Assembly: GCA_017645765.1 (NCBI GenBank) | Contig: JAGCNV010000058.1 | Location: 57,778-121,777, forward strand | Direction: 5' to 3' | DNA length: 64,000 bases | Source of the DNA: a bacterium | GTDB taxonomy: Bacteria > UBP6 > UBA1177 | Shown here: positions 1,666 through 62,881 of the stretch, in pieces | How positions within the stretch are numbered: the first letter of the stretch is position 1 | How the letters are laid out: every line of letters begins with the position of its first letter | The notes under the pieces: model-generated | Seen by the model: only the letters and a program-made list of their open reading frames with translations | What the model was told of the DNA's origin: nothing | Databases searched by the model: none | Program-made: the position numbers and the translations under genes

Positions 1666-1744
1666 TCAAAAACCGTCCGTAGTTATAAAAATTTTCTCCA
1701 TTTTCCATACAAACATCAGGTTTTGCCCTGATTAAGAGGTTCTT

Positions 1745-2593: not shown

Positions 2594-2668
2594 AACCAAG
2601 AAATCTTAATTGACTAAAATTCTCTTTTTTGTATCATCTCCCGCTTTTGATTTTTTTGAGGTCATTTA

Positions 2669-5074
2669 ATGAAAAAATCTATTTATTATGCAATTTTCCT
2701 TTTGTCGTTAGCAGGGCTTGCGCTTGAAAACAGCCTTACACGAATTTTCAGCATAACTATGTGGTATCACTACGCTTTCATGGCAATATCGGTCGCTATG
2801 CTCGGTATGAGTACCGGAGCTGTCAAAGTCTATTTGGCCGATTTTGCTTCCAAAACGGATGAAGAACTGGAAGCGCTTATTTCAAAATACAGCCGGCTTT
2901 TCGCGTTTTCTCTCATTGTTTCTCTGCTGACGCTCCTCTCGATCCCGTTCGTCCCCCGCCCTACAGGCATAGGATACTTTACAACCGCACTCATTTATAC
3001 CGTTGCCGCGGTTCCGTTCTATTTTGAAGGGGTCGCAGTTTCTTTAATTCTCGCCACGAAGTACATAAAACAGGCAAACAGACTTTATGCAGCCGATCTC
3101 GCAGGAGCCGCAGCAGGCTCGATCGCGTTTTTCTCCCTCCTTTCTGTGACCGATGCGGTAAGCGCAATAATTTTCATTTCAAGTTTCGGATTTTTCTCGG
3201 CTTTTGCTGTTTCAAAGAAAAAATCGGATCTCGCTCTGGCAATCTGCATCATTATTTTTTCCGTTTTCAACTACACCGGAAGAATCTTCAAAATCGAATG
3301 GACTAAAGTTGACGAAGGTGTCCTCGAAGCGGCTGTTGAACGTAATATCGAATGGGAAAGCTGGACTCCGTTTTCACGCATAACGGTTGCTCCTATGTTA
3401 AACGACAATGGTTTCGGATGGGGCATTTCAGGCAAAATGATGTCGCAGTTCCAAGATTACAAAGTCGAGCAGAAAAACCTGAAAATAGATTCAGCAGCGG
3501 CAACTGTAATTACGAAAAACACGATGCAGATATCAAATTTGATTCATCTGCGATACGATATCACCAACTTTGCGCACTATCTCTTCCCTCACTCAAAAGT
3601 CGGCGTCATCGGTGTCGGCGGCGGCAGAGATATCCTTTCGGCACTACATTTCGCTCAGGAAGAAGTTTGGGGAATCGAGATAAACGGGCGCATTCTTGAG
3701 GCTCTGACAAAAGTATATTCAAATTATACCTACAACATATCGGCACTTCCGAATGTTCATCTTATCGAAGACGAAGCACGCAATTTCTTTGAGAAAAACG
3801 ATATGCAGTTTGATCTGATTCAGGCAAGTCTCATAGATTCATGGGCTGCAACCGCTTCGGGTGCTTTCGTTCTCACTGAAAACTCGCTCTACACGATTGA
3901 AGCGTGGAAAACTTTCTATTCACGTCTTTCCGATAAAGGCGCGATCACAATGAGCCGCTGGTATTATCCGAAACGCCCAGGAGAACTTCTGCGCCTCGTA
4001 AATCTTGCTTACGAGACACTGCTTGAATCAGGCGTTAAAGAGCCGGCAAAACACATAATTCTTGTTGCTGTTGACTACTTTCCTGCTGAAGTTCCTATAG
4101 AAAAACATTTCGGTTCAGGAACGATCATCCTCTCAAAAAAGCCGTTAAAAAAAGGAATCATCGAAGAAGCCAAAAAACTTGCCGACAACTATGGTTTTGA
4201 AATACTCGTCGCAGGCGGTGAAGAAAAGGATTCCGATTTCAAAAGTATCATAACTCCGGAAAAACGCGAAATTTTCATGGCAAATTACCCGCTGGATCTC
4301 ACACCGCCGACAGATGACAACCCCTTCTTTTTCAATATGCTCAAGCCTTCAGCCGTCATCACGGGAAAAAATGTCGAATCGGAAGGAGTCCTTTCAACGA
4401 ACCTCATGGCGATACACAACCTTCTCTGGCTGATCGCTATAGTCGTTGTTCTCTCGCTTTTCCTCATAATAATCCCGCTGATTTCGAAGATGAAAACCGG
4501 AGTTGCAAAAGCCGTCTTCAACCGCTACACAGCTTATTTTACCGCTTTGGGAATCGGTTTTATGCTGATCGAAATATCGCTCATCCAGAAATTCGCCGTA
4601 TTTCTCGGGCATCCTACATACAGTATTCTTGTCGTTCTTTTCACAATGCTTCTTTTCAGTGGTCTCGGCAGCTTTACAAGCAAAAAACTGCGTGAAAAAG
4701 TCGGCGTCAAAGGGCTGTTTATACTGCTTATTCTGGTCGTTGCAACAGTCGGATCATCAAATATGTTCATTCTTCCTTTATTTAATTCCTGGTCGATAGC
4801 TCCGCGTATAATATACAGTTTCGTGACAATGGCTCTTGCAGGATTTTTCATGGGAATGCCCTTCCCGACCGGTCTTTCGCTGCTCAATAAAAAAGTCAGC
4901 GAATCGGCTCCGTGGTTCTGGGGTGTAAACGGCGCGGCAAGCGTTGTAAGTTCCGTAGTTGCCACGGCAATTTCAATTTTTTACGGCATCTCGGCGACAT
5001 TTTTCACAGGTCTTTTCTGCTACTTCGCAGCTTTTGCAGCTGGTATACTTATAGAAAAAGCGGCAGACAAATAA
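2669..5074 (+). CDS. Polytopic membrane protein with an embedded spermidine/spermine synthase-like (class I SAM-MTase-fold aminopropyltransferase-like) domain
   Basis: 801 aa with multiple hydrophobic helices at the N- and C-termini. The central segment VGVIGVGGGRDILSAL...GIEINGRILEA...LIEDEARNFF...DLIQASLIDSW...AFVLTENSLYT resembles the spermidine synthase (SpeE) fold, with glycine-rich loop and acidic residues. Confidence 0.65.
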   Translation: MKKSIYYAIFLLSLAGLALENSLTRIFSITMWYHYAFMAISVAMLGMSTGAVKVYLADFASKTDEELEALISKYSRLFAFSLIVSLLTLLSIPFVPRPTGIGYFTTALIYTVAAVPFYFEGVAVSLILATKYIKQANRLYAADLAGAAAGSIAFFSLLSVTDAVSAIIFISSFGFFSAFAVSKKKSDLALAICIIIFSVFNYTGRIFKIEWTKVDEGVLEAAVERNIEWESWTPFSRITVAPMLNDNGFGWGISGKMMSQFQDYKVEQKNLKIDSAAATVITKNTMQISNLIHLRYDITNFAHYLFPHSKVGVIGVGGGRDILSALHFAQEEVWGIEINGRILEALTKVYSNYTYNISALPNVHLIEDEARNFFEKNDMQFDLIQASLIDSWAATASGAFVLTENSLYTIEAWKTFYSRLSDKGAITMSRWYYPKRPGELLRLVNLAYETLLESGVKEPAKHIILVAVDYFPAEVPIEKHFGSGTIILSKKPLKKGIIEEAKKLADNYGFEILVAGGEEKDSDFKSIITPEKREIFMANYPLDLTPPTDDNPFFFNMLKPSAVITGKNVESEGVLSTNLMAIHNLLWLIAIVVVLSLFLIIIPLISKMKTGVAKAVFNRYTAYFTALGIGFMLIEISLIQKFAVFLGHPTYSILVVLFTMLLFSGLGSFTSKKLREKVGVKGLFILLILVVATVGSSNMFILPLFNSWSIAPRIIYSFVTMALAGFFMGMPFPTGLSLLNKKVSESAPWFWGVNGAASVVSSVVATAISIFYGISATFFTGLFCYFAAFAAGILIEKAADK

Positions 5075-5137: not shown

Positions 5138-7762
5138 TTAGATATTCTTCAATAATTCAGAGAACTTGTTGAAATCAACAGCCGGAGCGCCGCCCTGAGC
5201 CATATCGGGTTTTCCGCCGCCTCTGCCTCCGAATTCGGCAAGGATATTTTTGAGGATATTTCCTGCGTGGAACTTGGTTTTTGCAACGCCAGTCGCAGAA
5301 ATTATGACAAGTGCTTTCCCTGCATCATCGCCTACGACCGCAATAACGGCGTTATCGAACTTAGCCTTGAGCGAATCGACGAGTTCAAGCGATTCCGCGC
5401 GGTTTTTGCCAGAATTTATCGCAAAAATCTTGGTTCCGTCCTTTTCGCAGATCGGAGCAAGCGAAGCAGTCTGCATCGCTGCGAGTTTTTTGCCGGCCTC
5501 TTTGAGTTCGCGTGAAAGCTGTTTTGCCGTGTCGATCTGCTTTTCGACTCCTTTGACTACAAGCGATTTCTCGCTGCCCGTCATTTCGGCGATCGATGTT
5601 ATCGTTTCATCGTATTCCTGGAAAAGAGCGAGCGCACCGAGTCCTGTCACAGCCTCAATTCTGCGGACTCCAGCCGCTATTCCTTCTTCTTTCACGATTT
5701 TGAAAAGACCGATGTCACCCGTTGCTCTTACGTGCGTTCCGCCGCAAAGTTCCTTGCTTTCACCCATCGTTACGACACGGACGTTTTCACCGTATTTTTC
5801 GCCGAAAAGTGCCATCGCGCCCTCTTTCTTGGCCTCTTCGATCCCTTTTACGACCGTATTCTGCGGAGAGTTCGCCACGATCATACGGTTTACTTCGGTT
5901 TCAACGCGCTTGAGTTCCTCTTTCGTCACAGCCTGGAAGTGGTTGAAGTCGAAACGGAGCCTGTCGGGGCCGACCAGTGAACCGGCCTGGTTGACGTGCG
6001 TTCCCAAAACCATCTTCAGAGCGCGGTGCAGAAGGTGCGTCGCCGAGTGGTTGCGCCTTGTTGCAGAGCGTCTTTCGTGGTCAAGTTCCTGCTGAACGGT
6101 GTCACCGGTATTCAGAACATCGAGAACTTCGAGTTTGGCGACTTTTACATCGTGAACTTTTATCACATCAAGCACTTTCGCCGCGATCTTGCCGTTTTTC
6201 ATGACTTTTCCGTTATCGGCAAGCTGGCCGCCAGATTCCGCGTAGAAAACTATCGGATCAAAAATTGCGTAGCAGTTTCCATAGCTTACGCTCTCTTTTT
6301 TCGTAAATTCATCGTCAAAAAGAGCGACTATTTTTCCTTCGCACTCTTCCGTGTCGTAGCCTTTGAAAACAGGCTCTTTCATGCCGCCGTCAAGCAGTTC
6401 CTTGACAGCCGAAAGCTTCTGTGAATCCATTTTCGCGCTCCACGAAGCCTTTCCGCGCTGCTTCTGCTCCTGCATCGCCTTTTCGTATTCAGCCTGATTG
6501 AAGGAGAAACCTTTCTCTTCAAGGATCGTTTCGGTGAGGTCTGACGGGAATCCGTAGGTATCGTAAAGTTTGAAAACAAGCTCGCCCGGGAACTCTTTTC
6601 TGCCGTTTGCGAGCATCTCTTTCAAGCCGTCGTCAAGCAGAGCCAGACCTTTGTCCAGAGTCTGTCTGAAACGCGCTTCCTCGTCGCGGACGATGTTGAG
6701 TATAAGTTCCTGTTTTTCGACAAGTTCCGGATAGTGGTTCCCCATGATTCTGATGACTTCGCCGCAGACTTTCCAGAAGAAAAGTTCGTTGAAACCGAGT
6801 TTGTGACCGTGTCTGATCGCTCTGCGCATGATCCTGCGGAGAACGTATCCCCTTCCCTCGTTTGACGGCGTGATCGTGTCTGCGATGAGGAAAGATGTGC
6901 TTCTCGCATGGTCTGCGATAACATTGAGACTTGATCTGAGCTCAGCCGGAACAGTCTTTCCGAGCAGATTTTCGGTGAAACGGATCAGATCCTGGAAAAT
7001 GTCGATATCGTAATTTGAAAGTTTACCGTTGAGTATCGAAGTTATTCTCTCAAGTCCCATTCCGGTGTCAATATTAGGTTTCGGAAGCGGAGTCAGTTTG
7101 CCGCTTTCATCGCGGTTGAACTGCATGAAGACGAGGTTCCAGATCTCGACGAACCTGCCGCAGTCGAAGTCGGGCATTCCGTTGTCGAAGAAGGGTTTTT
7201 CGGCATGGAAACCTTCACCCAAGTCGTAATGGATCTCGCTGCACGGACCGCACGGGCCTGTATCGCCCATCTGCCAGAAGTTGTCGTGCTCGTCAAGACG
7301 GAAAATGTGCTTCGGATCGACGTCTGTATTTTTCAGCCAGAGCTGCTCTGCCTCGTCATCTTCTCTGAAAACCGTGACATAAAGGCGCGATTTGTCGAGT
7401 TTGAAAACTTCCGTGATAAGTTCCCATGCATATTTTATCGCATCTTCCTTGAAGTAGTCGCCGAAAGAGAAGTTTCCGAGCATCTCGAAGAAAGTGTGGT
7501 GTCTTGTCGTGAAACCGACATTCTCAAGGTCGTTGTGCTTTCCGCCCGCTCTGACGCACTTCTGGGCACTGCATGCACGGGTATAGCTTCTTTTTTCAAG
7601 CCCTAAAAACAGCTTTTTGAACTGGTTCATTCCGGCGTTAGCGAAAAGAAGAGTGTTGTCTTCAGCCGGAAGAAGCGGCGAACTTGCAACTTCGGTGTGG
7701 CCTTTAGCTTTGAAGAAATCCAAAAAAGTCCTTCTGACTTTGTCTATCGTCCAGTTTTCCAT
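5138..7762 (-). CDS. alaS: Alanine--tRNA ligase
   Basis: 874-aa protein starting MENWTIDKVRRTFLDFFKAKGH, with class II aaRS motifs and the full-length C-terminal editing and DHHA1-like region. GGAGG RBS 5 nt upstream of ATG 7762; the track ORF extends 7 codons further upstream. Confidence 0.95.
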   Translation of the reverse strand: MENWTIDKVRRTFLDFFKAKGHTEVASSPLLPAEDNTLLFANAGMNQFKKLFLGLEKRSYTRACSAQKCVRAGGKHNDLENVGFTTRHHTFFEMLGNFSFGDYFKEDAIKYAWELITEVFKLDKSRLYVTVFREDDEAEQLWLKNTDVDPKHIFRLDEHDNFWQMGDTGPCGPCSEIHYDLGEGFHAEKPFFDNGMPDFDCGRFVEIWNLVFMQFNRDESGKLTPLPKPNIDTGMGLERITSILNGKLSNYDIDIFQDLIRFTENLLGKTVPAELRSSLNVIADHARSTSFLIADTITPSNEGRGYVLRRIMRRAIRHGHKLGFNELFFWKVCGEVIRIMGNHYPELVEKQELILNIVRDEEARFRQTLDKGLALLDDGLKEMLANGRKEFPGELVFKLYDTYGFPSDLTETILEEKGFSFNQAEYEKAMQEQKQRGKASWSAKMDSQKLSAVKELLDGGMKEPVFKGYDTEECEGKIVALFDDEFTKKESVSYGNCYAIFDPIVFYAESGGQLADNGKVMKNGKIAAKVLDVIKVHDVKVAKLEVLDVLNTGDTVQQELDHERRSATRRNHSATHLLHRALKMVLGTHVNQAGSLVGPDRLRFDFNHFQAVTKEELKRVETEVNRMIVANSPQNTVVKGIEEAKKEGAMALFGEKYGENVRVVTMGESKELCGGTHVRATGDIGLFKIVKEEGIAAGVRRIEAVTGLGALALFQEYDETITSIAEMTGSEKSLVVKGVEKQIDTAKQLSRELKEAGKKLAAMQTASLAPICEKDGTKIFAINSGKNRAESLELVDSLKAKFDNAVIAVVGDDAGKALVIISATGVAKTKFHAGNILKNILAEFGGRGGGKPDMAQGGAPAVDFNKFSELLKNI

Positions 7763-7804
7763 AATTCCCTCCATAAAAAACAAAATCGCGCGATTGTAGT
7801 TTTG

Positions 7805-22212: not shown

Positions 22213-22246
22213 TTTATGTTTTATGGTTGCCTTTTTGGAGAAATTT

Positions 22247-23413
22247 ATGAAAAAAAACATCTTATTGCTCTTGATTGCAGTTTTTACGCTTTTCATTTCC
22301 GCATGTGGAGATAACAACGAAGAAGGAATTGCAGCTGGAGATTCCTGTTCTTCTGAGGGATTGGAAATATGTTCCGATGACGGATCTGAACTACTTTTGT
22401 GTCAGGATTCAGCTTGGGTACTGAAAAAACAGTGTAATATTTCCATCGGAAAAAGGTGCAAGCAGAATTCTGCCGGTGTTTTCGGCTGCTTCAGTGAAGG
22501 CAATACTGATAGTGAGGATCATAGTTATCCTGACTCTTCCGACACTAACAATGAAGAACCTGATTCTTCTGACCATAACACCGAAGAACCTGACACAAAC
22601 AACACGTCCGATACAGAAAACGAAACTCCCGACAGCAGCAATACTGATACTTCGGAAGATCCTACCGACACAGACGACTCGGACACCATTCCGCAGACAG
22701 ACTCTGACAACACTAACGATCCTAATGATGAAGCGGCAGACAATGATGCTGACAATGACTCTGACAACGATACCGATACTGATAACAACGATACTGAACC
22801 GCCGTCAGATCAATGTTCTTTAAATTCCGACTGCTCTGACCCTACCCCTTATTGTTCGCGTTCAACTTCACAGTGTATCGCAAACGCCGTTTTCATAACG
22901 GAATATGTCGAGGGAAGCAACGATAATAAAGCAATTGAAATCTACAACGGCTCAAAATCGCCCGTAAATTTAAGCAATTTCACCATTCAGCAGGCAAACA
23001 ACGGCAAAAATTGGGGTAGCGACCCGACAAACTTTATCTTCAATTTTCCGGCAGCATCACTTTCTTCCGGCAAGACTTTTGTATTCTGCAATGTAGCATC
23101 AGATCCCGAACTTGTGGCCAAATGCGACCAGACACCTACAAGTGAAGTTTTTAAATTCAGCGGTGATGACGGCATAGCATTATTTGACGGGAACTCCATT
23201 GTTGATCAGATAGGCATTCAGGGTCAGGGAACCAATGTTAAACCATGGAGTGTCGCCGGTGTTCCAAGTGCAACAGAAGCTCACACTTTAAGAAGGAAAC
23301 TCTCTGTCATCCAGGGCACGACTGACTGGGCTCTTTCCGCCGGAACAACTGAAGAAAACTCTGAGTGGGAAGTGCTCGCAAAAGACACATTCGACGGTTT
23401 AGGCTCAAGATAA
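22247..23413 (+). CDS. Lipoprotein with Asp/Thr-rich acidic linker and C-terminal lamin-tail-domain (LTD)-like beta-sandwich domain
   Basis: MKKNILLLLIAVFTLFISACG lipobox. Long D/N/T/E low-complexity region. C-terminus ITEYVEGSNDNKAIEIYNGSKSPVNLSNFTIQ resembles LTD (PF00932-like) motifs. Confidence 0.6.
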   Translation: MKKNILLLLIAVFTLFISACGDNNEEGIAAGDSCSSEGLEICSDDGSELLLCQDSAWVLKKQCNISIGKRCKQNSAGVFGCFSEGNTDSEDHSYPDSSDTNNEEPDSSDHNTEEPDTNNTSDTENETPDSSNTDTSEDPTDTDDSDTIPQTDSDNTNDPNDEAADNDADNDSDNDTDTDNNDTEPPSDQCSLNSDCSDPTPYCSRSTSQCIANAVFITEYVEGSNDNKAIEIYNGSKSPVNLSNFTIQQANNGKNWGSDPTNFIFNFPAASLSSGKTFVFCNVASDPELVAKCDQTPTSEVFKFSGDDGIALFDGNSIVDQIGIQGQGTNVKPWSVAGVPSATEAHTLRRKLSVIQGTTDWALSAGTTEENSEWEVLAKDTFDGLGSR

Positions 23414-46504: not shown

Positions 46505-48064
46505 ATGACAAAAATCGTGCCGTTTTCCACCGTTTTCAGCACTAAATTTTCATTTTTTCTTCTCTTTTTCGCGGCAGTTTTTCTTTTTTCAAGCTGCGGC
46601 AGCAGCACAAAAATAGAACCTGTTTCAAATACCGATGAAGATTCGACCGATGCTGACTTCGACATGGATGAAGAAGAAGACTGGGAAGAAGATGAAGAAA
46701 TGGAAGACGAGGAAGATTTGGACAGTGATGACACCGACGACAGCGAAACTTCAACAGAAGAAAAACCCGCTCGGCAACCTACACGCGAAGAGTGTATTAA
46801 CGCCGGAGGAACATGGGATGAAGAAGAGAGCAGACATTGTTACAGAGACAAAGACTGCGACGAAAAACCGGAAAACGCCAAATGGAGCGGCTGGTATAAT
46901 GATACATACCGGCAGTATTACGAAAACGGTGAATGGAGCGAACCTCCTGTAACAGAATACAACGACGACAAACAATTCGATGAATGTGATTTCGTTTGCC
47001 GGAAAAATTATTCATGGGACGGAACGGAATGCAAAGATCTGTGCGATCCCGATCCCTGCGCTGCAGTTGAGCATTCAGACGATATCTGCATCACAACTCC
47101 CGGCCTTTACTCCTGCGGTTGCGCCGACGGATACAGATGGAATGACGGAGAGTGCGTAGAAATCACTTCAAAACTGAGTTTGGGCAACATCTGCACCTGC
47201 CAGTCGGAATGCTATAAAGATATTTTAGAAACTAACGCAGAGTGCACTGCCGAAGGAAAGGAACTTTTCGGGCAGGATGCCGTCTATGCCGCAGCGGGAC
47301 GCTGCATCCGACAGAAATATTCGATCAAAGAAACCGGCATCGAAAATGAAGATATCATACTTGACAACAATTTGAAACTTGAATGGCAGCGTACCCTTTC
47401 AGGAGAAAAATACGATTGGGAAACTGCCGTAAATTATTGTAAAAACCTTGAATACGGAGGATATACCGACTGGAGGGCTCCGACTCCTAAAGAACTTTTA
47501 AGCATTCTTGGAGGACGCTGCGACAGGGAAACCCCGGACTTCTATTTCAAAGACAGCGGACTTTTCTTAACCTCAAAACTTTACGCAGGCAATTCAAACC
47601 AAGTCTGGTTAGGTGAAAACAGCTTCGGCAACATGTCATATTTTTCGCGTAACCTCGCTATCATCAGCGTCCGCTGCGTCAGAGGTGAAACGATTCCGGA
47701 AGACACTTTTACGGTCTCGGTTGTAAACGGTGACGAGATCGTAACAGATTCAGCCACAGGTCTCGTCTGGCAAAAAGAGGATGTTTCCGGTAAAAGATGG
47801 AGAGAAGCTCTCGAATACTGTGAAAACCTGACTTATGCAGGATACTCCGACTGGAGGCTTCCCAACATAAACGAACTTGCTTCCCTTGCAAATTATGACA
47901 AATACAGCCCTGCTTCCGATTTTCCAGGCATATCCCAAGAAAATTACTGGTCATCCACAACTGATATTCCCATGATTGTTTCGGCATTGAATATATTTTT
48001 CCATACTGCCGAATTGAATTATGCATCCAAAGATACTTTCTATTATGTCAAATGCGTCAGATAG
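46505..48064 (+). CDS. Lipoprotein with acidic linker, Cys-rich region and two DUF1566 / Fib_succ_major-type domains
   Basis: Signal peptide plus ...FLFSSCGSS lipobox, then a D/E-rich linker. Motifs ...WETAVNYCKNLEYGGYTDWRAPTPKELLSI... and ...RWREALEYCENLTYAGYSDWRLPNINELASLAN.... Confidence 0.75.
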   Translation: MTKIVPFSTVFSTKFSFFLLFFAAVFLFSSCGSSTKIEPVSNTDEDSTDADFDMDEEEDWEEDEEMEDEEDLDSDDTDDSETSTEEKPARQPTREECINAGGTWDEEESRHCYRDKDCDEKPENAKWSGWYNDTYRQYYENGEWSEPPVTEYNDDKQFDECDFVCRKNYSWDGTECKDLCDPDPCAAVEHSDDICITTPGLYSCGCADGYRWNDGECVEITSKLSLGNICTCQSECYKDILETNAECTAEGKELFGQDAVYAAAGRCIRQKYSIKETGIENEDIILDNNLKLEWQRTLSGEKYDWETAVNYCKNLEYGGYTDWRAPTPKELLSILGGRCDRETPDFYFKDSGLFLTSKLYAGNSNQVWLGENSFGNMSYFSRNLAIISVRCVRGETIPEDTFTVSVVNGDEIVTDSATGLVWQKEDVSGKRWREALEYCENLTYAGYSDWRLPNINELASLANYDKYSPASDFPGISQENYWSSTTDIPMIVSALNIFFHTAELNYASKDTFYYVKCVR

Positions 48065-48072
48065 GAGGAAAG

Positions 48073-50205
48073 ATGAAAAAAATTTTTATTCTCATTCTCG
48101 TTTTTCTATTTTTGTCATGCAGTAACAGCACAAAACACACTGCAGACAATGATTCCTATGTCGAAAATCATGATGCCGATGATATCGGATTTTCTGACGA
48201 AAACGATACGGAAACTGTCAATGAAGATATTGAAAACACCGAAAGATGCTATACCTGGACGGATGATGTTCCCGAAAATACAGACGATGAATATCCGAAA
48301 AATGACGATAATGAATATGAACCTCTTCAAGGAATATGCCTCGAAGAACCTTGCAAAAATGTTGAAAACGCGACAGGCAAGTGCCTTACGAAAGGTGAAA
48401 ACGGCGACTATGTCTGCGTCTGCAAAGAAAATCATGTCTGGTTTCCCGATAAAAAAAGCTGTGAACCGATAAGCTCTTTCAAAGGTTTGTCGTGCACCGG
48501 TCAGACAAAATGCTACGACAACGAAAAAGAGATCCCATGCCCCGAAGAGGGCGAACCTTTCTTCGGTCAGGATGCAAATTATGCCGAAAACGGATCGTGC
48601 CTTCCCCAGAATTTCACAATAAAACACTACGAATCCGGCACGACAGTTATTGACAACAATTCCAAACTTGAATGGACACGGCAGGTCTATGCAGTACAAA
48701 ACCATTACGTCAGGATTGTTGGAGGATATTACGACTGGAGAACACCGACTTTTCAGGATTACAACTCGATAATTGACAGCGGAACTTTTGCTCCGACCAT
48801 AAACGAGGCATACTTTCCCAACACTCCTTTAGACATTTTCGTTACAGAATCTTACGAGTATTTGAATCATACAGGACCTCAGGAGGGCTACTATTACTAT
48901 GTTATAAAAGGAATGAACTTCAAAACAGGACTCTCAGAATACAACACTTATGAATATGGAATCGGTATTCCGGAAACATTTAACTTCAGAAGTGTCCGAG
49001 ACCTGCCTGAAAAACCTGAATCCTGCGGAGTTAAACTGCAGGATGACGAATACAAACTCGTAAATCTTCTTCCGCAGAAACTTCTGCTTATCAGAACACC
49101 TGAAGAAGGCAAGAACTGGGAAGAAGCTCTTGCATACTGCGAAAACCTGACTTACGCTGGTATATCAGACTGGAGACTGCCCAACAGAAACGAAGCCTAC
49201 TTCAGCATATCTAAATTACGCAGTCAATATGAATCCCTTTTATGCTGGTCATCTACGACATATCCGGGAAACCCAACTCAAGCACTTTTCTACTCTGCCC
49301 CCGACTACATATTCACAGCCGGCAAAATCACAGGAAAAGCAAACGCAAACTGCTGCGTAGCCTTTGATCCGTGTCCTGAAGGTAAAATGTGGACCGGAGA
49401 AAAATGCACTTCATCCGAAGGTATCGCATTTAAAGATGACGAATGCGGATGCATTGAAGGATATACTTGGGAAGATTCGCATTGTGCAAAAACATGCAGC
49501 GACGATTTATGCAAAGACAAACCCCATTCAACAGGACTCTGTCTGCAAACGATTGACGACGGTGAATCTCAGAAAGTTAAGTGCCAGTGCGAAGAAAACT
49601 ATTTTCTGAACGAAAATTTCGAGTGCATAAACCCGTGCGACGCCGATCCGTGTTCAGGCAAGGAAGAATACGACGGAAGCTGCGTTCCGACAGGACTTAC
49701 CACTTTCACATGCGGCTGCAGTACAGGCTACTATCCCAAATCAAACAACTGTATTCCGGTAAAATATAATGACTGTTACACCGAGTATAATGATGATGCC
49801 TGCATCAACGATGTTAGCAATATAATGTGGTCTTCAATATCCGACGGCATTTTAACATGGAAAGATGCAAAAAAACATTGTGACGATCTTGAAGAAGCAG
49901 GATATAACGACTGGAGACTTCCTAAGGTCGAAGAACTCTGGACTTTTGCGAGATCGTGCAACAGTATTCCTAAAGAATCCTGCGAAGCCAGCGAAAAAAA
50001 CTGCTGCCTTTCCGAAGAATGCATCGCACAGTGTAAATGTAAGATTTATCGGGAACCCAACCCTGTTGACTATTTATGGTCATCATCCTTCAAAATAGAC
50101 GATCCCCAAAAAGTCATAATCTTTTACAAATATTACGCTATTCTGCAATTCTTCGACATAAAAACAGATGCCGCCAAGGTCAAATGCGTAAGGAATATTG
50201 AGTGA
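48073..50205 (+). CDS. Large lipoprotein with DUF1566 / Fib_succ_major-type domains and EGF-like Cys-rich modules
   Basis: AGGAGG RBS, then MKKIFILILVFLFLSCSNS lipobox. Three DUF1566-like motifs (...NWEEALAYCENLTYAGISDWRLPNRNEAYF...; ...LTWKDAKKHCDDLEEAGYNDWRLPKVEELW...). Four EGF-like units (CGCIEGYTWEDSHC, CQCEENYFLNENFEC, CGCSTGYYPKSNNC). The track ORF start overlaps the upstream gene. Confidence 0.75.
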   Translation: MKKIFILILVFLFLSCSNSTKHTADNDSYVENHDADDIGFSDENDTETVNEDIENTERCYTWTDDVPENTDDEYPKNDDNEYEPLQGICLEEPCKNVENATGKCLTKGENGDYVCVCKENHVWFPDKKSCEPISSFKGLSCTGQTKCYDNEKEIPCPEEGEPFFGQDANYAENGSCLPQNFTIKHYESGTTVIDNNSKLEWTRQVYAVQNHYVRIVGGYYDWRTPTFQDYNSIIDSGTFAPTINEAYFPNTPLDIFVTESYEYLNHTGPQEGYYYYVIKGMNFKTGLSEYNTYEYGIGIPETFNFRSVRDLPEKPESCGVKLQDDEYKLVNLLPQKLLLIRTPEEGKNWEEALAYCENLTYAGISDWRLPNRNEAYFSISKLRSQYESLLCWSSTTYPGNPTQALFYSAPDYIFTAGKITGKANANCCVAFDPCPEGKMWTGEKCTSSEGIAFKDDECGCIEGYTWEDSHCAKTCSDDLCKDKPHSTGLCLQTIDDGESQKVKCQCEENYFLNENFECINPCDADPCSGKEEYDGSCVPTGLTTFTCGCSTGYYPKSNNCIPVKYNDCYTEYNDDACINDVSNIMWSSISDGILTWKDAKKHCDDLEEAGYNDWRLPKVEELWTFARSCNSIPKESCEASEKNCCLSEECIAQCKCKIYREPNPVDYLWSSSFKIDDPQKVIIFYKYYAILQFFDIKTDAAKVKCVRNIE

Positions 50206-55650: not shown

Positions 55651-55723
55651 TCGAGATTAAGAGATCTCGGAAATCAGACCGCAGCCATCGGGATTCCGAT
55701 ATTCCTTAATTTCAGGATATCGG
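55651..55723. promoter_or_regulatory. Two palindromic operator-like elements in the divergent fcl / lipoprotein-triplet control region
   Basis: TCGAGATtaagagATCTCGG (55651-55670) and TCCGATATtcc-ttaatttca-ggATATCGG (55695-55723). Confidence 0.35.
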
Positions 55724-55752: not shown

Positions 55753-55780
55753 TTGATTTTTTTTCGTTTCTGCTTAAAAT
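55753..55780 (+). promoter_or_regulatory. Candidate promoter (TTGATT-16-TAAAAT) for the first gene of the lipoprotein triplet
   Basis: -35 at 55753-55758 and -10 at 55775-55780, about 35 nt before the ATG at 55815. Confidence 0.3.
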
Positions 55781-55814: not shown

Positions 55815-57557
55815 ATGAAAAGATGTTATTTTTTTCCAATTTTGGCAATCCTAATTCTTTTTGTTTCATGCGCAAGTGAAGATGACGAAAACGAAAGCGG
55901 CAATCAAGTTAATGAAGCATGTTCTTCAAATATTGACTGCCCGATAGGCTATGTCTGCGACAAGGAAAAGAAAATCTGCACAGACAAACCGGAAAACGGT
56001 GGAGACGATGGCAGCGATAACGGCGATAACGGCGACAGCGACACCGGCAATAACGGTGAAAACGGTGATACAGACAGTACCACTCCCGGCAAACAGGACG
56101 GAGACGACGATCCGATAACAGGAAACTGCACTCCGGGTAAAAAGCAGACATGCGAGTATCAGGGCGATCCGGCCACTGAAAACGTAGGTCCGTGCAAAGC
56201 CGGAATCAGAACCTGCAAAGATGACGGAACCTGGGGTCACTGTGAAGGCGAAGTCCTTCCGGTAAACGAGATCGGAAGCGAACTCTGCGGCAACGGAATC
56301 GATGACGACTGCAACGGTGTCGTTGACGACGGAACCGACATCGACGGCGACGGCTACGGTGCATGCAAGGACTGCTGCGAAATTGCTGACGATTGCAACG
56401 GCTACGACCCGGCAACAATAAACCCGGCCGGTGCCGAAATTTCAGACAACGGAGTAGACGACAACTGCAACGGTCAAATTGACGAAGATCCTTCCTGCGA
56501 CGGCTCCGACGAACCGCTCCAGCTTAACGATTACCCTGGCAACGCGATAAAACTCGCCCACGCGATGGGAATCTGCGGTGACCAGCTTGTTTCTGCCGAA
56601 ATTTCACTCGCAGGACCTGCCGCAACCGAATCAATTGCTGATGAGCAGTGCATAAGTATCAGCGGCAGCGGAAACAAAATTTCCAGACAAAGTCTTCCTA
56701 TGCCGTATTACACCAGCGATTACCAGACTTTTGCCGCAACTACAAAGTTCGGCAACAATATCACACCGAAAGAAGGCTCTAAAATAGCCATTCTGTCCAC
56801 TGGAGACTGGGATAATCCGACACAGGAATTCAAATGTGCCAAACTCTCTTCCGGCGACATGAAAACAGCCAGCAAAGTCCCTGAAGACTGGATGAACATG
56901 ATGCCGGGCTGCACTATTCCAAGATCACCTTCATGCGGAGGAACAGTTGTTGAAGACGGTCTCACAAACCAGTGCGCAGGAAAAGAACTTCCGACGGTTC
57001 AGGATCCTATAATGCTCACACTAAAAATCAAAGTGCCGATGAATGCGCGAGCTTTCCAGTTCAACATTTTCTTCCTCTCGGCTGAATATCCTGGAACCGT
57101 ATGTGCAGACGGAGCCTTCAACGACTTTTTCTTCGCTCTTCTTGATTCGGAACACAATACAAAATATCCGGACGATGAATACCAGAATCCTTACGATAAA
57201 AACCTTGGAAAAGATGCGAAAGGCAACTTTGTAGGTATCGATCTCGCTCCTCAAGGGCTTTTCACAGTCTGCAACGCGAGCGACAGTTCAAACGAATATG
57301 CTTCGTTCTGCACTGAAGGTGCAACACTTCTTCAGGGAACAGGCTTTGACGGCATGAGTGCAGGCAGCGGCGGCACCGGCTGGCTCACGACACGCGGAAA
57401 TGTCGTTCCCGGCGAAACAATAACCTTGAGACTTGCGATTTTCGAACAAGGAACTGTCTGGACTTACGGTTCCGACCATTCATACGATTCGACGGTTCTT
57501 CTCGACGGTTTCAAGTGGCTTCCGAACCCTGCAAAAGCGGGAACCAGTCAATACTAA
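55815..57557 (+). CDS. Lipoprotein, member 1 of a tandem triplet: Gly/Asp/Asn-rich linker, Cys-rich MopE-like putative metal-binding module, conserved C-terminal domain ending GTSQY
   Basis: GGAG RBS, then MKRCYFFPILAILILFVSCASEDD lipobox. Cys-rich core ...CTPGKKQTCEYQGDPATENVGPCKAGIRTCKDDGTWGHCEGEVLPVNEIGSELCGNGIDDDCNGVVDDGTDIDGDGYGACKDCCE... (CDG/DDDC-N-G-xxDD repeats). Confidence 0.7.
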   Translation: MKRCYFFPILAILILFVSCASEDDENESGNQVNEACSSNIDCPIGYVCDKEKKICTDKPENGGDDGSDNGDNGDSDTGNNGENGDTDSTTPGKQDGDDDPITGNCTPGKKQTCEYQGDPATENVGPCKAGIRTCKDDGTWGHCEGEVLPVNEIGSELCGNGIDDDCNGVVDDGTDIDGDGYGACKDCCEIADDCNGYDPATINPAGAEISDNGVDDNCNGQIDEDPSCDGSDEPLQLNDYPGNAIKLAHAMGICGDQLVSAEISLAGPAATESIADEQCISISGSGNKISRQSLPMPYYTSDYQTFAATTKFGNNITPKEGSKIAILSTGDWDNPTQEFKCAKLSSGDMKTASKVPEDWMNMMPGCTIPRSPSCGGTVVEDGLTNQCAGKELPTVQDPIMLTLKIKVPMNARAFQFNIFFLSAEYPGTVCADGAFNDFFFALLDSEHNTKYPDDEYQNPYDKNLGKDAKGNFVGIDLAPQGLFTVCNASDSSNEYASFCTEGATLLQGTGFDGMSAGSGGTGWLTTRGNVVPGETITLRLAIFEQGTVWTYGSDHSYDSTVLLDGFKWLPNPAKAGTSQY

Positions 57558-57595
57558 GAATAAATCTTCAAAAACAAAATCACTAACAAATTCCC

Positions 57596-57624
57596 TTGAT
57601 TATTTTCTCTCACCAAATTATAAT
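57596..57624 (+). promoter_or_regulatory. Candidate promoter (TTGATT-17-TATAAT) for the second triplet gene
   Basis: -35 at 57596-57601 and -10 at 57619-57624. The gene starts at 57657 after a GGAGG RBS. Confidence 0.3.
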
Positions 57625-57656
57625 AACACAATTTTGTTTTCCGATTGGAGGATGCT

Positions 57657-59213
57657 ATGAAGTTTTTTAAATTTGTTTTAATGTTCATGATTTCAGTATT
57701 TTGCTTCGTTTCGTGTGCCGGTGAAGAAGAAGACGGTGGAGACACTTCTTCCGGCGTCGGACAAAGTTGTCAATCGAACATTGACTGCCCTATCGGTCTT
57801 ACTTGCAATACTGAAAAAAATATCTGCACCGACGGCTCGGGCAGCGGTGGTAACGACGGAGACGGCGGCGACACTGATACCGGCAGCAACGGTGACGGCG
57901 GCGACACCGATACCGACAGTACCACTCCGGGCAAACAGGACGGAGACGACGATCCGATAACAGGTCCGTGCACTCCGGGTAAAAAGCAGACATGTGAGTA
58001 TCAGGGCGATCCTGCCACAGAAAATGTCGGTCCGTGCAGAGCTGCCACAAGAACCTGCAATGAAGACGGAACATGGGGAAAATGCACAGGCGAAATCCTT
58101 CCTGTAAACGAGACCGGCGACGAACTCTGCGCTGACAACATAGACAACGACTGCAACGGTGTCATTGACGACGGAACAGATTTCGACGGTGACGGTGTCG
58201 GTTCATGTTTTGACTGCTGCGAAACGACCGATGTCTGCCCTTTCCCGAAAGAAGCTTGGGATAAAAACAGTCCGTCAGACCTTTGCGAATACGAGGTAAT
58301 TGAAACTGAATGCGAATCGGGTATCTCAGAATCTTCCACAGATCCCTACGATTACGCAAAAGCAATAGGGATCTGCAAAACGACGACGGCAAATTCCAAC
58401 GAATGGGGACTTATCAGTGCGAAAATAACGGCTCCGGACGGCTCGTTCCAAGTCCATGCAAACAGCAGCGGTCTTGTTTCGAAATTCGGAAATGTTATAA
58501 CTCCGAAAGCGGGCAAATACATGCTGGCTTTGACTTCAGGAAAAATAAGAAACAATAAGTTCGAAGAATACGAACCGACTGATGCCTTGTGGGGTGGCAA
58601 CGGCATCACAAGCGGCGCCCCATCCGACTGGACGGCTAAACACGGCGGAAAATTCCCTTCTGCCGAATCCTGCACGGCAGGTTCTGGAACAACAGGTGAT
58701 GTAAACGATGCCGTAATGTTCGATATGGAGATAAGAGCTCCCAAAACAGCGAAATCGTTCAGTTTTAACATCTATTTCTTTACAATCGAATATCCAGTCT
58801 ATATTTGTTCAAGTTTCAACGACTTCTTCATTGCACTTCTTGACTCAAATCATACAAGCAATGACCCTGACTTCCAGAATCCGGATGACAAAAACCTCGC
58901 CATGGATGCGAACGGCAACCCTGTCGGCGTAAATCTTGCACCATCAGGGCTTTTCACTCAATGCCAACCTGCTACCAGTTATCCTGCTACTCAAGAATCT
59001 TGTATCGGTACGGAAGACCTTCAAGGAACCGGTTTTGAATCAAGTGGTGGAACAGGCTGGCTCAGGACTCGCGGAAATGTTATTCCTGGCGAAACGATAA
59101 GGCTCCGCCTTGCAATCTGGGATCTTGCCGACCACCAATTGGATTCCCTTGTTCTTATCGACAACTTCGAATGGGATGCCCAAGAATATACACCAGGAAC
59201 AGGACAGTACTAA
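57657..59213 (+). CDS. Lipoprotein, member 2 of the tandem triplet (MopE-like Cys-rich module plus conserved C-terminal domain ending PGTGQY)
   Basis: MKFFKFVLMFMISVFCFVSCAGEEEDG lipobox. A ~120-bp stretch (57925-58050) is nearly identical to 56080-56200 of member 1. The C-terminal ~200 aa aligns with members 1 and 3. Confidence 0.75.
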   Translation: MKFFKFVLMFMISVFCFVSCAGEEEDGGDTSSGVGQSCQSNIDCPIGLTCNTEKNICTDGSGSGGNDGDGGDTDTGSNGDGGDTDTDSTTPGKQDGDDDPITGPCTPGKKQTCEYQGDPATENVGPCRAATRTCNEDGTWGKCTGEILPVNETGDELCADNIDNDCNGVIDDGTDFDGDGVGSCFDCCETTDVCPFPKEAWDKNSPSDLCEYEVIETECESGISESSTDPYDYAKAIGICKTTTANSNEWGLISAKITAPDGSFQVHANSSGLVSKFGNVITPKAGKYMLALTSGKIRNNKFEEYEPTDALWGGNGITSGAPSDWTAKHGGKFPSAESCTAGSGTTGDVNDAVMFDMEIRAPKTAKSFSFNIYFFTIEYPVYICSSFNDFFIALLDSNHTSNDPDFQNPDDKNLAMDANGNPVGVNLAPSGLFTQCQPATSYPATQESCIGTEDLQGTGFESSGGTGWLRTRGNVIPGETIRLRLAIWDLADHQLDSLVLIDNFEWDAQEYTPGTGQY

Positions 59214-59299
59214 CTGCTCTTTTTTATTTTTCCTAACACCTTTCTTGCTTCTTTCCTCACGAGAACTACAATAAGTCTGTTTTTATGCTGGAGGAGATT

Positions 59300-60856
59300 A
59301 TGAAATTACTGAAATTTGCCTTGATTTTTTTGATTTTTACATTCGCTCTTGTTTCATGCAGTTCTGACGAAAAAGGCGAAAACGACACTTCTTCCGATGT
59401 CGGACAAAGCTGCGAATCAACTCTTGACTGCCGCGCAGGTCTTAAGTGCGATCCCGAAAAGAAAATTTGTACTGAAACTCATAACAAAGATAATGAAAAA
59501 GATGACAGTGATTCAGGTTCATCTGAAAAAAACGATTCAGACCATTCCGACAATGATGCCGCAGACACCGAAAATCCGGAAAACCCCGATGACAACGACC
59601 CGATAACGGGTGTGTGCACTCCAGGCGAAACACAAAAATGCGAATATCAGGGACTTCCGGAAACAGAAGATGTCGGTCCGTGCAAAGCCGGAATAAGCAC
59701 CTGCAAAGAGAATGGAAAATGGGGAAAATGCGAAGACGAAGTTCTCCCTGTAAATGAATCCGGCAGCGAACTCTGCGCTGACGGTATAGACAACGACTGC
59801 AACGGTGTAGTTGACGACGGAACAGATTTCGACGGTGACGGTATCGGAGCGTGCGGGGACTGCTGTGAAACAAAGGAAGTCTGCCCTTTCCCGAAAGAAG
59901 CATGGGATGCGGAAAATCCGGAACAACTTTGTGAATATGAAGAAATTATTTACGATTGCGACTCGGAAATCCAGCAGGATTCAACTGATCCCTACGATTA
60001 CGCAAAAGCTATCGGCATCTGCCAGACTACGACCGAAGATTCCAACGAATGGGGCCTTATCAGTGCGAAAATATCGACTCCGACAGGCAATTCCTCAGAT
60101 GTTCATGACAAAAGCAACGCTCTTCTATCAGCCCTCGGCAATCTCATCAGGCCGAAAGAAGGCAAACTTATGCTCGGGTTGAGCTCCGGTCAGGTCACTG
60201 ATCCTTTCACAGGTTATACCACTTTGGGTAATTATTCAGGCGCTCCGGCAGACTGGCTTGAAGCAAATGATGGAAAATTTCCGGCGGCTCCTGCATGCGA
60301 AGAAGGTCATTCAGGGACCCAGGGCGGTGTCCGCAATGCAGTTATGCTTACTATGAAGATAAAAGCTCCTAAATCCGCAAGATCGTTCCGCTTCAACATC
60401 TACTTTCTGACAGAAGAATATCCTATGTGGATATGCTCACAGTACAACGACTTTTTTATTGCACTCCTTGATTCAGAATACACAAGCAGCGATCCTACCC
60501 TTCAGAATCCGACCGATAAAAATCTCGCAATGGACGCTAGCGGCAATCCTGTCGGTATAAATTTAGCTCCAGCCGGACTTTTCACTCAGTGCAAAAACTA
60601 TAACGGAAACAATGCTCAGAACTACCACGTCGAAGTGACATCATGCACAGGAACGGATGAACTTAAGAAAACAGGTTTTGAATCACACGGCGGTACAGGC
60701 TGGCTAACGACACGCGGAAATGTTGTCGGCGGTGAAATCATAACTTTGAGACTTGCCATCTGGGATCTGAATGACGCACAGTACGATTCGCTTGTTCTTA
60801 TCGATAACTTCAGGTGGGATATTGCGGAACACACTCCCGGAACCGGACAATACTAA
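59300..60856 (+). CDS. Lipoprotein, member 3 of the tandem triplet
   Basis: GGAGGAG RBS, then MKLLKFALIFLIFTFALVSCSSDEKG lipobox. Same domain order as members 1 and 2 (...CTPGETQKCEYQGLPETEDVGPCKAGISTCKENGKWGKCEDEVLPVNESGSELCADGIDNDCNGVVDDGTDFDGDGIGACGDCCE...LAIWDLNDAQYDSLVLIDNFRWD...PGTGQY). Confidence 0.75.
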   Translation: MKLLKFALIFLIFTFALVSCSSDEKGENDTSSDVGQSCESTLDCRAGLKCDPEKKICTETHNKDNEKDDSDSGSSEKNDSDHSDNDAADTENPENPDDNDPITGVCTPGETQKCEYQGLPETEDVGPCKAGISTCKENGKWGKCEDEVLPVNESGSELCADGIDNDCNGVVDDGTDFDGDGIGACGDCCETKEVCPFPKEAWDAENPEQLCEYEEIIYDCDSEIQQDSTDPYDYAKAIGICQTTTEDSNEWGLISAKISTPTGNSSDVHDKSNALLSALGNLIRPKEGKLMLGLSSGQVTDPFTGYTTLGNYSGAPADWLEANDGKFPAAPACEEGHSGTQGGVRNAVMLTMKIKAPKSARSFRFNIYFLTEEYPMWICSQYNDFFIALLDSEYTSSDPTLQNPTDKNLAMDASGNPVGINLAPAGLFTQCKNYNGNNAQNYHVEVTSCTGTDELKKTGFESHGGTGWLTTRGNVVGGEIITLRLAIWDLNDAQYDSLVLIDNFRWDIAEHTPGTGQY

Positions 60857-60977: not shown

Positions 60978-61217
60978 ATGAAAGAATTTGTTGAATTCAT
61001 TGCAAAAAAGCTTGTTGACGTTCCAGAAGCGGTTGAAGTCAGCTACATCGAAGGAAAAAATACCGCTATCATCGAACTCAGAGTCGCTCCTGAAGATGTC
61101 GGCAAAGTCATCGGCAAAAGCGGCAGAACTGCAAACGCTCTCCGTACGCTTATCAGCGCAGTTGCAAGCCGGCAGAATCAGAAAGTCGTTTTGGAAATCA
61201 TCGAAGAGAACAAATAA
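60978..61217 (+). CDS. KH-domain RNA-binding protein (KhpA/YlqC, UPF0109 family)
   Basis: ...VAPEDVGKVIGKSGRTANALRTLI... contains the GxxG KH loop. ~79 aa. GGAGG RBS. Confidence 0.8.
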   Translation: MKEFVEFIAKKLVDVPEAVEVSYIEGKNTAIIELRVAPEDVGKVIGKSGRTANALRTLISAVASRQNQKVVLEIIEENK

Positions 61218-62881
61218 TGTCCCCAAAAAGAAAAGTGCACGCATCAGAACTTGCTGCGGGCAGAAACAGCAATTCCCACTGGCGTTATCTCTTTCTCCTT
61301 ATTGTCGTAGGCGGATTTTTCCTTTATTTCATGATAAAATGGTCTAGCGACAAGGAATACGACCGTTTCGCCGCGGCAAAACAATATTCTGAATATTACA
61401 AGGATTTTTTTGTGGAACAGCCTCTTACCTACACGGTTTTTGAAGAAAGCAAACTTGTGATAAGGGCTACGAATCTCGGTTCGGAATTCTGGAACAAAGA
61501 GTTTTACGCAATGATCCGGCAGTCCGAAAACGAAGTCAACGAGATGCTGAATGTCGCCAAGCTCATAAACGAGACTCACTCGGAAACAGGCGAAACTTTG
61601 AAGGAAGAACAGAATCTTTCGTCGTTTCCCGCTCTTTACGGGCTTATCGAAACCGGCAAAAAAATGTCGGAAATTTCCTACTACAACATCGCCTCTGGTG
61701 AAATTTCGGAATTTTGGGAAAGACAGTATCGAAATTATAAAAAGAAATCAACTGCTTACGCAAAAGCAGAAGTCGTTCTCAACTATCTTTTCGATAACCC
61801 GATGCTCTCTCCCACCGAGATTCAGAACAGGAAAAAACTTCTCGATAATCTGACGAAGGAGAAAACCGATTCCGCCTCTTCGGTTGACGATCTTGCAAAT
61901 CAGATCTACAAACTGGCAGACAAAACTTTCACAAAAATGCTGAAAGAGGCTCTCTCGAAACCTTCTTCGATATCTGAAAACGAGAAAAAAGCGCTTCTGC
62001 TCAACATTTTAGCTCACGTCAAAATCCATTCGACGATCGACGAAGCTCCGAAATTCGAAAATGCGAAAGCGTTTGTTCCGTACGCAGATCCGAATAAAAT
62101 CGAGCTCAACGACGAGAAAAAAAGTGTAAAAATTCTGAGCCCGAACATCAGCATCGACGTCAACTTTTTCAGAGAAGCCCTTTTCATGAAACAGCTTCAT
62201 GAAAAACTGCCGAAAGTAAAATTCAACTATCTCATCTATTTCGGCGACCGCCACGGAATGTGGAAACTTCCGAAAGAATATGTCCGCTGGTCAGTTTCGA
62301 TCGACGATCCTTTCTCTGTAACCGACAAGATCCGCGGCGCGATAAAACTGATGCCTGAAGAGGGTTACTTCGTCATCACGCGGCGCAACGAGAACGTGAT
62401 CATGGTCAAAATGGAGGAATTGAGCGAAAAAATAAGAAAAGACCTCGATTCCATCAAGGAATACGACGCGAAAAACGCTTATCTTATACAGCTTAAAAAG
62501 GATTATCCCGACAAAACCTACTTCTTTGACCCGATCAAGAAGACAATGTTCCGCAAATACGATACTCCGGTGGACTGGCGTACAGCTGAACAAGTCAGCG
62601 AAAACCTTGCAGCTTTCGTTATCGACGAGGAAGATCCTGTCAGGGCAAGAATGCTCTCCTACTCTCTTTTTATTTCGGATAACGCACGGATCGCAGACCA
62701 CGAAAAAGGGTTTGCAGATACGATTTTTGCAGTCCTTAAAAACGATTCGACCGTCTTCGTTCCCGAAAAGCACAAAGAGCTTTTCATGACTCCGGAAGAT
62801 GTGAAAGAGGCTAAAATCAAAGCCGATTACAAGGCGCGCGGCCTCAATCCTGACGGAACAGTCCCCGAAAAAAAGAAATGA
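61217..62881 (+). CDS. Hypothetical membrane-anchored protein (554 aa)
   Basis: Start overlaps the stop of the KH-protein gene (ATAATG). One N-terminal TM helix (WRYLFLLIVVGGFFLYFMI). Lys/Glu-rich. No recognisable motif. Confidence 0.55.
   Translation: MSPKRKVHASELAAGRNSNSHWRYLFLLIVVGGFFLYFMIKWSSDKEYDRFAAAKQYSEYYKDFFVEQPLTYTVFEESKLVIRATNLGSEFWNKEFYAMIRQSENEVNEMLNVAKLINETHSETGETLKEEQNLSSFPALYGLIETGKKMSEISYYNIASGEISEFWERQYRNYKKKSTAYAKAEVVLNYLFDNPMLSPTEIQNRKKLLDNLTKEKTDSASSVDDLANQIYKLADKTFTKMLKEALSKPSSISENEKKALLLNILAHVKIHSTIDEAPKFENAKAFVPYADPNKIELNDEKKSVKILSPNISIDVNFFREALFMKQLHEKLPKVKFNYLIYFGDRHGMWKLPKEYVRWSVSIDDPFSVTDKIRGAIKLMPEEGYFVITRRNENVIMVKMEELSEKIRKDLDSIKEYDAKNAYLIQLKKDYPDKTYFFDPIKKTMFRKYDTPVDWRTAEQVSENLAAFVIDEEDPVRARMLSYSLFISDNARIADHEKGFADTIFAVLKNDSTVFVPEKHKELFMTPEDVKEAKIKADYKARGLNPDGTVPEKKK

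Follow-up and report, generated by a model that had tools for sequence, protein, structure and literature searches.

The choice-of-anchor L domain is a named protein family (NF038133 and Pfam PF26766) with no assigned function. In our literature search, 'choice-of-anchor L' was mentioned in no paper found, and the papers on 'choice-of-anchor' domains concern other lettered families. We know of no solved structure for the choice-of-anchor L family, nor for either part of the pair that it forms with the MopE-type motif of PF11617 ('Cu-binding_MopE'). The PF11617 motif is abundant in secreted proteins of Myxococcota, and segmental gene conversion is generally known in tandem surface-protein paralogs. 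In this study, a tandem array of three paralogous genes (hereafter A, B and C) was analysed in a 64,000-nt stretch of contig JAGCNV010000058.1 (GenBank assembly GCA_017645765.1), referred to as the window. Our favoured explanation, to which we assign a probability of about 0.5, is that A, B and C encode a tandem family of binding proteins, either adhesins or lectins, which carry a lipid anchor, face the cell surface or the periplasm and combine a homogenised stalk with diverged heads.

The three genes lie consecutively on the + strand, as an earlier note on this DNA had reported, at 55815–57557 (A; 580 aa, ATG at 55815), 57657–59213 (B; 518 aa, ATG at 57657) and 59300–60856 (C; 518 aa, ATG at 59300). 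Their products are identical to NCBI MBO7127131.1, MBO7127132.1 and MBO7127133.1, respectively; the first is named 'putative metal-binding motif-containing protein', and the other two are named 'choice-of-anchor L domain-containing protein'. Protein identity in full-length alignment was 51% for A–B, 47% for A–C and 61% for B–C. Three-way alignment confirmed a tandem triplet of paralogous predicted lipoproteins with a single architecture. From the N-terminus, it consists of a signal peptide, a mini-module with four cysteines (C-x-S-x-x-D-C-x-x-G-x-x-C-x5-C), an acidic linker of 40–50 residues rich in G/D/N/S/T, a module rich in Cys and Asp and, at the C-terminus, a domain of about 290 aa whose last residues are GT(G/S)QY. 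The Cys/Asp-rich module of A carries two MopE-type motifs, and the head domain of A has extra Cys-containing loops; B and C follow the same layout with one MopE-like motif each. The repeated C-x-(D/N)-G-(I/V)-D-(D/N)-D-C-N-G-x-(V/I)-D-(D/E) motifs previously ascribed to all three genes are thus found twice in A but as a single copy in B and in C. A conserved C-terminal domain was likewise seen, but several of the motifs quoted for it read otherwise, with LAIFEQ and LLDGFKW in A and VVGGE in C.

The C-terminal domains are encoded on the + strand at 56532–57554 in A, 58329–59210 in B (residues ~225–518) and 59972–60853 in C. All three scored above the 27-bit cutoff of the NF038133 hidden Markov model (HMM), with 27.5 bits for A (borderline), 53.4 bits for B and 56.9 bits for C; the head of A is the most diverged and shows A-specific insertions in the alignment. 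PF26766 (Choice_anch_L) is precomputed on essentially all homologs, including P0082, which is protein A itself, and our local Pfam scan returned no PF26766 match because this entry is newer than the release scanned. By these profile assignments, the C-terminal domain of A, B and C is choice-of-anchor L. The description of the domain as uncharacterised does not hold in the sense of unrecognised, since NF038133 and PF26766 already name it and NCBI names these exact proteins accordingly; the guess that HMM searches would lead to a 'choice-of-anchor' family was correct. Assignment to a well-characterised family with known function, which had been regarded as fatal to the earlier proposal, was not what was found. 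A, B and C are ordinary members of domain families that are already named and annotated.

The family to which these domains belong is large. A phmmer search of the full library with the C-terminal domain of B retrieved 1994 cluster representatives at E ≤ 0.001 and 934 at E ≤ 1e-10, and in most of the matches listed the domain runs to the C-terminus. In long relatives, it is joined to Lcl_C, EGF repeats plus C-type lectin, Laminin_G_3 and FGE-sulfatase-like domains, and a MopE motif stands directly upstream of it in four of the eight long relatives examined. Relatives with the full architecture occur in metagenome-assembled genomes (MAGs) of Myxococcota, as in L003 (34% identity over residues 105–515). 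A, B and C resemble the rest of the choice-of-anchor L family in that all exceed the HMM cutoff and carry the domain at the extreme C-terminus, as most relatives do. They differ in that the anchor is an N-terminal lipobox and not a C-terminal sorting signal, and in that the genes form a recombining tandem array.

Structure prediction of the C-terminal domain, which the earlier note had proposed, yielded a beta-jelly-roll. The AlphaFold2 model of B, for which 66 sequences were aligned, had a mean predicted local distance difference test (pLDDT) score of 79.9; linker residues 61–93 were disordered, the Cys module and the C-terminal domain were confident, and the latter was beta-rich and predicted with high confidence. 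A Foldseek search of the B model against PDB gave nothing at E ≤ 0.001, the best matches being CBM61, CBM27, LAST-MAM and gingipain adhesin domains. Comparison of a profile of the 66 homologs with PDB sequences gave chance matches only (SlyA and DHDPS; E 0.4–0.7), and homology of the domain to a solved structure by sequence was rejected on this basis. The heads resemble carbohydrate-binding modules (CBM61, CBM27, CBM4), MAM domains and gingipain 'cleaved adhesin' domains in their predicted beta-jelly-roll and their extracellular, stalk-presented position, but neither sequence-family membership nor close structural superposition with these groups was found. The surface glycan-binding proteins (SGBPs) encoded in polysaccharide utilisation loci of Bacteroidota are also lipid-anchored with a distal beta-sandwich, and the SGBP-B structures 7k44 and 7kwc are among the weak fold matches; in contrast, A, B and C have housekeeping neighbours with no SusC/SusD or glycoside hydrolase genes nearby, belong to another lineage and contain domains unrelated in sequence. 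The domain partners in long relatives and the predicted fold together favour an extracellular recognition module as the likely role of the C-terminal domain.

Anchoring at the N-terminus was judged by eye using the criterion [LVI][ASTVI][GAS]C at the end of the signal peptide. The signal peptides end in FVSC in A (Cys19), FVSC in B and LVSC in C, each preceded on inspection by a basic and then a hydrophobic segment, and the lipobox Cys is invariant in the 66 homologs. From these features we infer lipidation and surface exposure of the three proteins.

A and B share a short tract of raised nucleotide identity. Codon-aligned nucleotide identity over the whole genes was 59% for A–B, 56% for A–C and 68% for B–C. 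In a segment covering the linker end and the first part of the Cys-rich module, at 56067–56190 in A and 57909–58032 in B (both + strand), 113 of 124 nt are identical (91%), the longest uninterrupted match being 35 nt; the slightly shifted interval 56080–56200 of A, compared at an offset of 1842 with 57922–58042 of B, gives 110 matches in 121. The 200 nt after the patch show 73% identity, and the binomial probability of the patch at this neighbouring rate is 6e-7. Identity between B and C drops to 45–70% in the patch region, though B–C is otherwise the closest pair. In a permutation test on 678 three-way informative sites, the sites at which A equals B clustered at A 56043–56167, a score reached in 0 of 20,000 permutations (p < 5e-5). 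Pairwise synonymous divergence (dS) along the genes, a calculation suggested beforehand, was 0.38 for A–B in the patch of the window and 1.70 gene-wide.

The same pattern was observed in the related genomes L001 (yak rumen MAG RGIG10122) and L002. Within genomes, the A and B patches are 91% identical in the window, 97% in L001 and 89% in L002, against 80–84% between orthologs; the corresponding dS values are 0.38, 0.13 and 0.46 within genomes and 0.8–1.8 between orthologs, each of these estimates being noisy because the tract spans only about 38 codons. A and B share residues specific to each genome, namely CEYQG in the window, CPYQG in L001 and CGYQG in L002. In the head domain, orthologs cluster together instead, with 77–88% identity among A orthologs and about 60% between A and B. 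These results confirm gene conversion in the A–B pair, and the pattern is one of repeated segmental, non-reciprocal conversion, that is, concerted evolution, found independently in two sister genomes. The patch of about 120 bp described in the earlier note is real and lies significantly above the gene-wide 59%, which disposes of the concern that it might be no more similar than the average; at 91%, however, it is not nearly identical, and with a patch dS of 0.38 in this genome the conversion is supported but is not recent or 'active'. Compared with known concerted evolution in tandem surface-protein paralogs, the array is alike in that a short tract is homogenised per genome and the rest of the genes follows orthology. 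It is different in that the conserved stalk is converted and not a variable antigenic cassette, and no silent donor cassettes were seen.

Copy number also varies at the syntenic site, with two copies in L002, three in the window, three plus a 316-aa fragment in L061 (JGI contig Ga0265298_10000024) and four in L001; in the more distant lineage L062, two tandem copies lie in other genomic surroundings. The fragment in L061 (13747–14697) is a fourth, truncated choice-of-anchor L gene that follows A, B and C. In L001, the fourth copy, D, is complete, and its linker is a long GNSGDN-type repeat. The ratio of nonsynonymous to synonymous divergence (dN/dS) between orthologs was 0.17–0.20 for whole genes and 0.1–0.23 for the head domain, and the whole-gene values indicate that the genes are maintained by purifying selection. 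The A ortholog of L001 (6165–7907) contains an in-frame TAG (YEM*GDEV) where L002 and L061 have CAG (Gln); this reflects either a pseudogene specific to the strain or an error in the assembly. The length of the linker differs greatly between homologs. A tandem 33-nt duplication in the linker of B (57849–57914, + strand; GNDGDGGDTDT / GSNGDGGDTDT; repeat family D8, 85% identity) illustrates, as read from its sequence, how linker length changes.

The Cys/Asp-rich module of A (56127–56513, + strand; residues ~105–233) consists, in order, of an EGF-like or sushi-like part with five cysteines, C-x-N-G-I-D-D-D-C-N-G, a DIDGDG loop, DCCE and a second MopE-type motif. PF11617, whose gathering threshold is 27 bits, matched A at 37.2 bits in two stretches, reached a sub-threshold 21.3 bits in C and gave no match in B at E ≤ 1; it matched 36 of the 66 homologs at E ≤ 0.1. 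The MopE-type motif reported previously therefore stands for A by profile score, but not for C or B, although its residues are aligned and conserved in both. Like other PF11617 motif proteins, the array carries C-x-D/N-G-x-D-x-D-C-D/N-G-x-x-D-D/E (twice in A, once each in B and C), and the pairing of this motif with choice-of-anchor L recurs in distant relatives; unlike them, only A passes the gathering threshold, and the copper site defined for MopE* is not this motif. Across 40 aligned A-type homologs, invariance in the module is limited to Cys, Asp, Gly, Pro, Trp and Tyr residues and one Glu, among them D81, D83, D85 and G86 (fragment numbering) of the D(I/F)DGDG loop, and no His or Met is conserved. 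Acidic loops of the DxDxDG type can coordinate Ca2+. An invariant DxDxDG loop in a module that conserves neither His nor Met suggests Ca2+ rather than copper, and the module is probably stabilised by Ca2+. The AlphaFold2 model of the isolated A module reached a pLDDT of 86.7. A Foldseek search of this model against PDB returned no match at E ≤ 0.001; the best matches, at E 0.56 and low probability, were sushi/complement control protein (CCP)-like ectodomains and ectodomains of class-B G-protein-coupled receptors (GPCRs), and no fold was assigned.

These elements can be combined into a mechanism for the lipid-anchored binding proteins that we favour. The N-terminal lipobox Cys would tether each protein to the membrane, and the acidic, disordered linker of 40–50 residues together with the disulfide-rich module would form a stalk, probably stabilised by Ca2+ at its invariant DxDxDG-type acidic loop. 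The stalk would present the choice-of-anchor L beta-jelly-roll as a head of the kind that CBMs, MAM domains and gingipain adhesin domains use to bind glycans or proteins. The paralog heads are most diverged in their N-terminal half (40–63% nucleotide identity between paralogs), and the divergence in this half and in the loops suggests that the heads may have different ligands. Non-reciprocal recombination between A and B would repeatedly homogenise the stalk, and unequal recombination would alter copy number from two to four between related genomes. Ca2+ binding, and a binding rather than a catalytic function of A, B and C, are what we infer from these features. Several points weigh against this explanation. 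The Phe at position −3 of the lipobox in A and B is non-canonical (LVSC of C is canonical), and the many disulfides would require an oxidising compartment in a rumen anaerobe. The heads contain many invariant polar residues (D324-W325, D389, S397, N408, D411, N413, T466, W468, N474, E479, D492 and D502), which would also fit an active site, or one common ligand instead of diversified specificity.

The lead pursued in the earlier note was that the triplet encodes MopE/CorA-like copper-acquisition proteins whose Cys-rich module binds copper, and this now appears very improbable. The lead draws on the above-threshold match of A to 'Cu-binding_MopE' and on immobilised metal affinity chromatography (IMAC), from which weak Cu(II) binding was inferred for the first 24 residues of MopE*, adjoining the motif (PMC3423442). 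When the A Cys-rich module was searched with phmmer against all PDB sequences, however, the only similarity was to MopE* (2VOV), at E 0.18 and confined to MopE* residues 6–44. In MopE*, residues 1–46 have been cleaved off or cannot be seen in the crystal, and His132, His203 and kynurenine-130, an oxidised Trp, make up the high-affinity Cu(I) site (PMC3423442). His132, His203 and Trp130 all lie outside the aligned stretch, and the domain that carries them has no counterpart in A, B and C. The part of MopE* to which the motif maps is the disordered N-terminus and not the structurally defined copper site; for this reason the reading of the array as copper proteins was rejected, and the copper link via MopE is one in name only. 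The residue conservation of the module, with no conserved His or Met, speaks against copper as well, 2VOV was no structural match in the Foldseek search of the module, and the host is a rumen anaerobe with housekeeping genes around the array and no methane-oxidation context. 'Cu-binding_MopE' annotations should not be taken as evidence of copper binding. It is also conceivable, although unlikely, that choice-of-anchor L is a catalytic jelly-roll (a glycoside hydrolase (GH), a polysaccharide lyase (PL) or similar) and that the triplet comprises surface-tethered enzymes acting on rumen plant or host polymers. Against this, no Pfam or NCBIfam enzyme family was matched even at E ≤ 1, neither the GH16 ExDxxE nor a PL7 signature was found in the alignment, the best Foldseek matches (CBM61, CBM27, MAM and adhesin domains) are non-catalytic, and long relatives pair the domain with modules for adhesion or of lectin type and not with enzyme accessories.

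Variation in copy number and mosaic recombination at a fixed chromosomal locus, the nonsense mutation in one ortholog and the highly variable linker lengths would also fit structural or envelope-organising lipoproteins, or surface-variation antigens, that have no specific external ligand; recombination in the array would then serve surface diversity, for example against phage or protozoan grazers. We consider this quite improbable, since the head dN/dS of 0.1–0.23 reflects purifying and not diversifying selection, orthologs of each paralog are kept across genomes, and about 2000 clusters, some of them from Myxococcota, preserve the core of the head. Beyond the tandem family of anchored binding proteins, a broader proposal can be offered tentatively. 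The MopE-type Cys/Asp module and the choice-of-anchor L jelly-roll may constitute a widespread supradomain (the jelly-roll is found in about 2000 clusters at 50% identity), which could possibly be a new family, either of modules that recognise glycans or proteins with the help of Ca2+ or of enzymes; at this locus it would take the form of a recombining tandem array, in which conversion preserves the stalk shared by the copies and the heads grow apart to suit different ligands. What the analysis adds to the existing annotation is the concerted evolution and copy-number dynamics of the array, and the recognition of the MopE-motif and choice-of-anchor L pair as a recurrent supradomain. The locus is a clean, small case of segmental concerted evolution plus copy-number change that does not overturn current understanding, and three compact paralogs with orthologs in several rumen MAGs offer a tractable entry to the large choice-of-anchor L family.

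Each gene of the array is preceded by a GGAG or GGAGG 6–8 nt before its ATG, in agreement with the GGAGG-type ribosome-binding sites proposed for them. Promoter-like hexamers on the + strand also precede each gene: TTGATT and TAAAAT separated by 16 nt before A (55753–55780; retained in L002 and, in part, in L001 and L061), TTGATT and TATAAT separated by 17 nt before B (57596–57624; 10/12 matches), and a weaker site, TTGCTT and TACAAT separated by 16 nt, before C (59245–59272), which was read from the sequence and lies below the scan threshold. The promoter scan gave 7 sites, against 6.0 ± 2.1 in shuffled sequence. The idea that each gene has its own sigma70-like promoter is matched by these hexamers, but they show no excess over shuffled sequence, and separate promoters are not supported. 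No intrinsic terminator between A, B and C was found by the scan. Two palindromic operators had further been proposed in the divergent intergenic region upstream of A (55651–55723). Both inverted repeats exist, but only the imperfect repeat CCGATATTCCT...AGGATATCGG at 55696–55723 is conserved; L001 and L061 keep it, with a single compensatory change from A-T to G-C, and L002 lacks it. The repeat at 55652–55669 is present in the window and not conserved in relatives. An operator role is unsupported for either and is speculative.

The array lies in a housekeeping region of the chromosome, which contains genes for alanyl-tRNA synthetase (AlaRS), oligopeptidase F, glycogen phosphorylase and synthase, an AsnRS/AspRS-type synthetase, TonB, an HslU-like ATPase, Lon, patatin, YitT, a GDP-fucose-synthase-like epimerase (fcl), KhpA and a conserved 554-aa protein. 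The nearest genomes are rumen MAGs, namely the yak rumen MAG RGIG10122 and RUG11946, the latter labelled 'uncultured Spirochaetales'. Relatives of the AlaRS (5138–7783, − strand) with more than 57% identity are bacterial MAGs only, identity to many phyla is about 50%, and no spirochaete is among the top matches. A spirochaete origin was rejected on this evidence, and the 'Spirochaetales' label of RUG11946 looks doubtful. As judged from such comparisons, the host appears to be a deep-branching rumen bacterium, and the presence of TonB suggests that it is diderm.

Two further predicted lipoprotein genes, slightly overlapping, are located on the + strand at 46505–48064 and 48052–50205. Their lipobox sequences are FSSC and FLSC, and each product combines an acidic linker with Cys-rich modules of EGF-like type and with Lcl_C (DUF1566) domains. 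Lcl_C is fused with a choice-of-anchor L domain in P0121, a metagenomic protein of 1587 aa, and this fusion suggests that the two families of surface proteins operate in the same setting. In the window as a whole, no tRNA and no Rfam match was found, and three ORFs within 571–5074 (+ strand; 364, 282 and 801 aa) had no Pfam match at E ≤ 1e-5. A lamin-tail domain protein (LTD, PF00932) is encoded at 22223–23413 (+ strand), between a GT2 glycosyltransferase and glycogen synthase and near glycogen phosphorylase. The conserved 554-aa protein (61217–62881, + strand), which has an N-terminal transmembrane segment and no Pfam match, is encoded directly downstream of KhpA and is syntenic in L001, L002 and L061.

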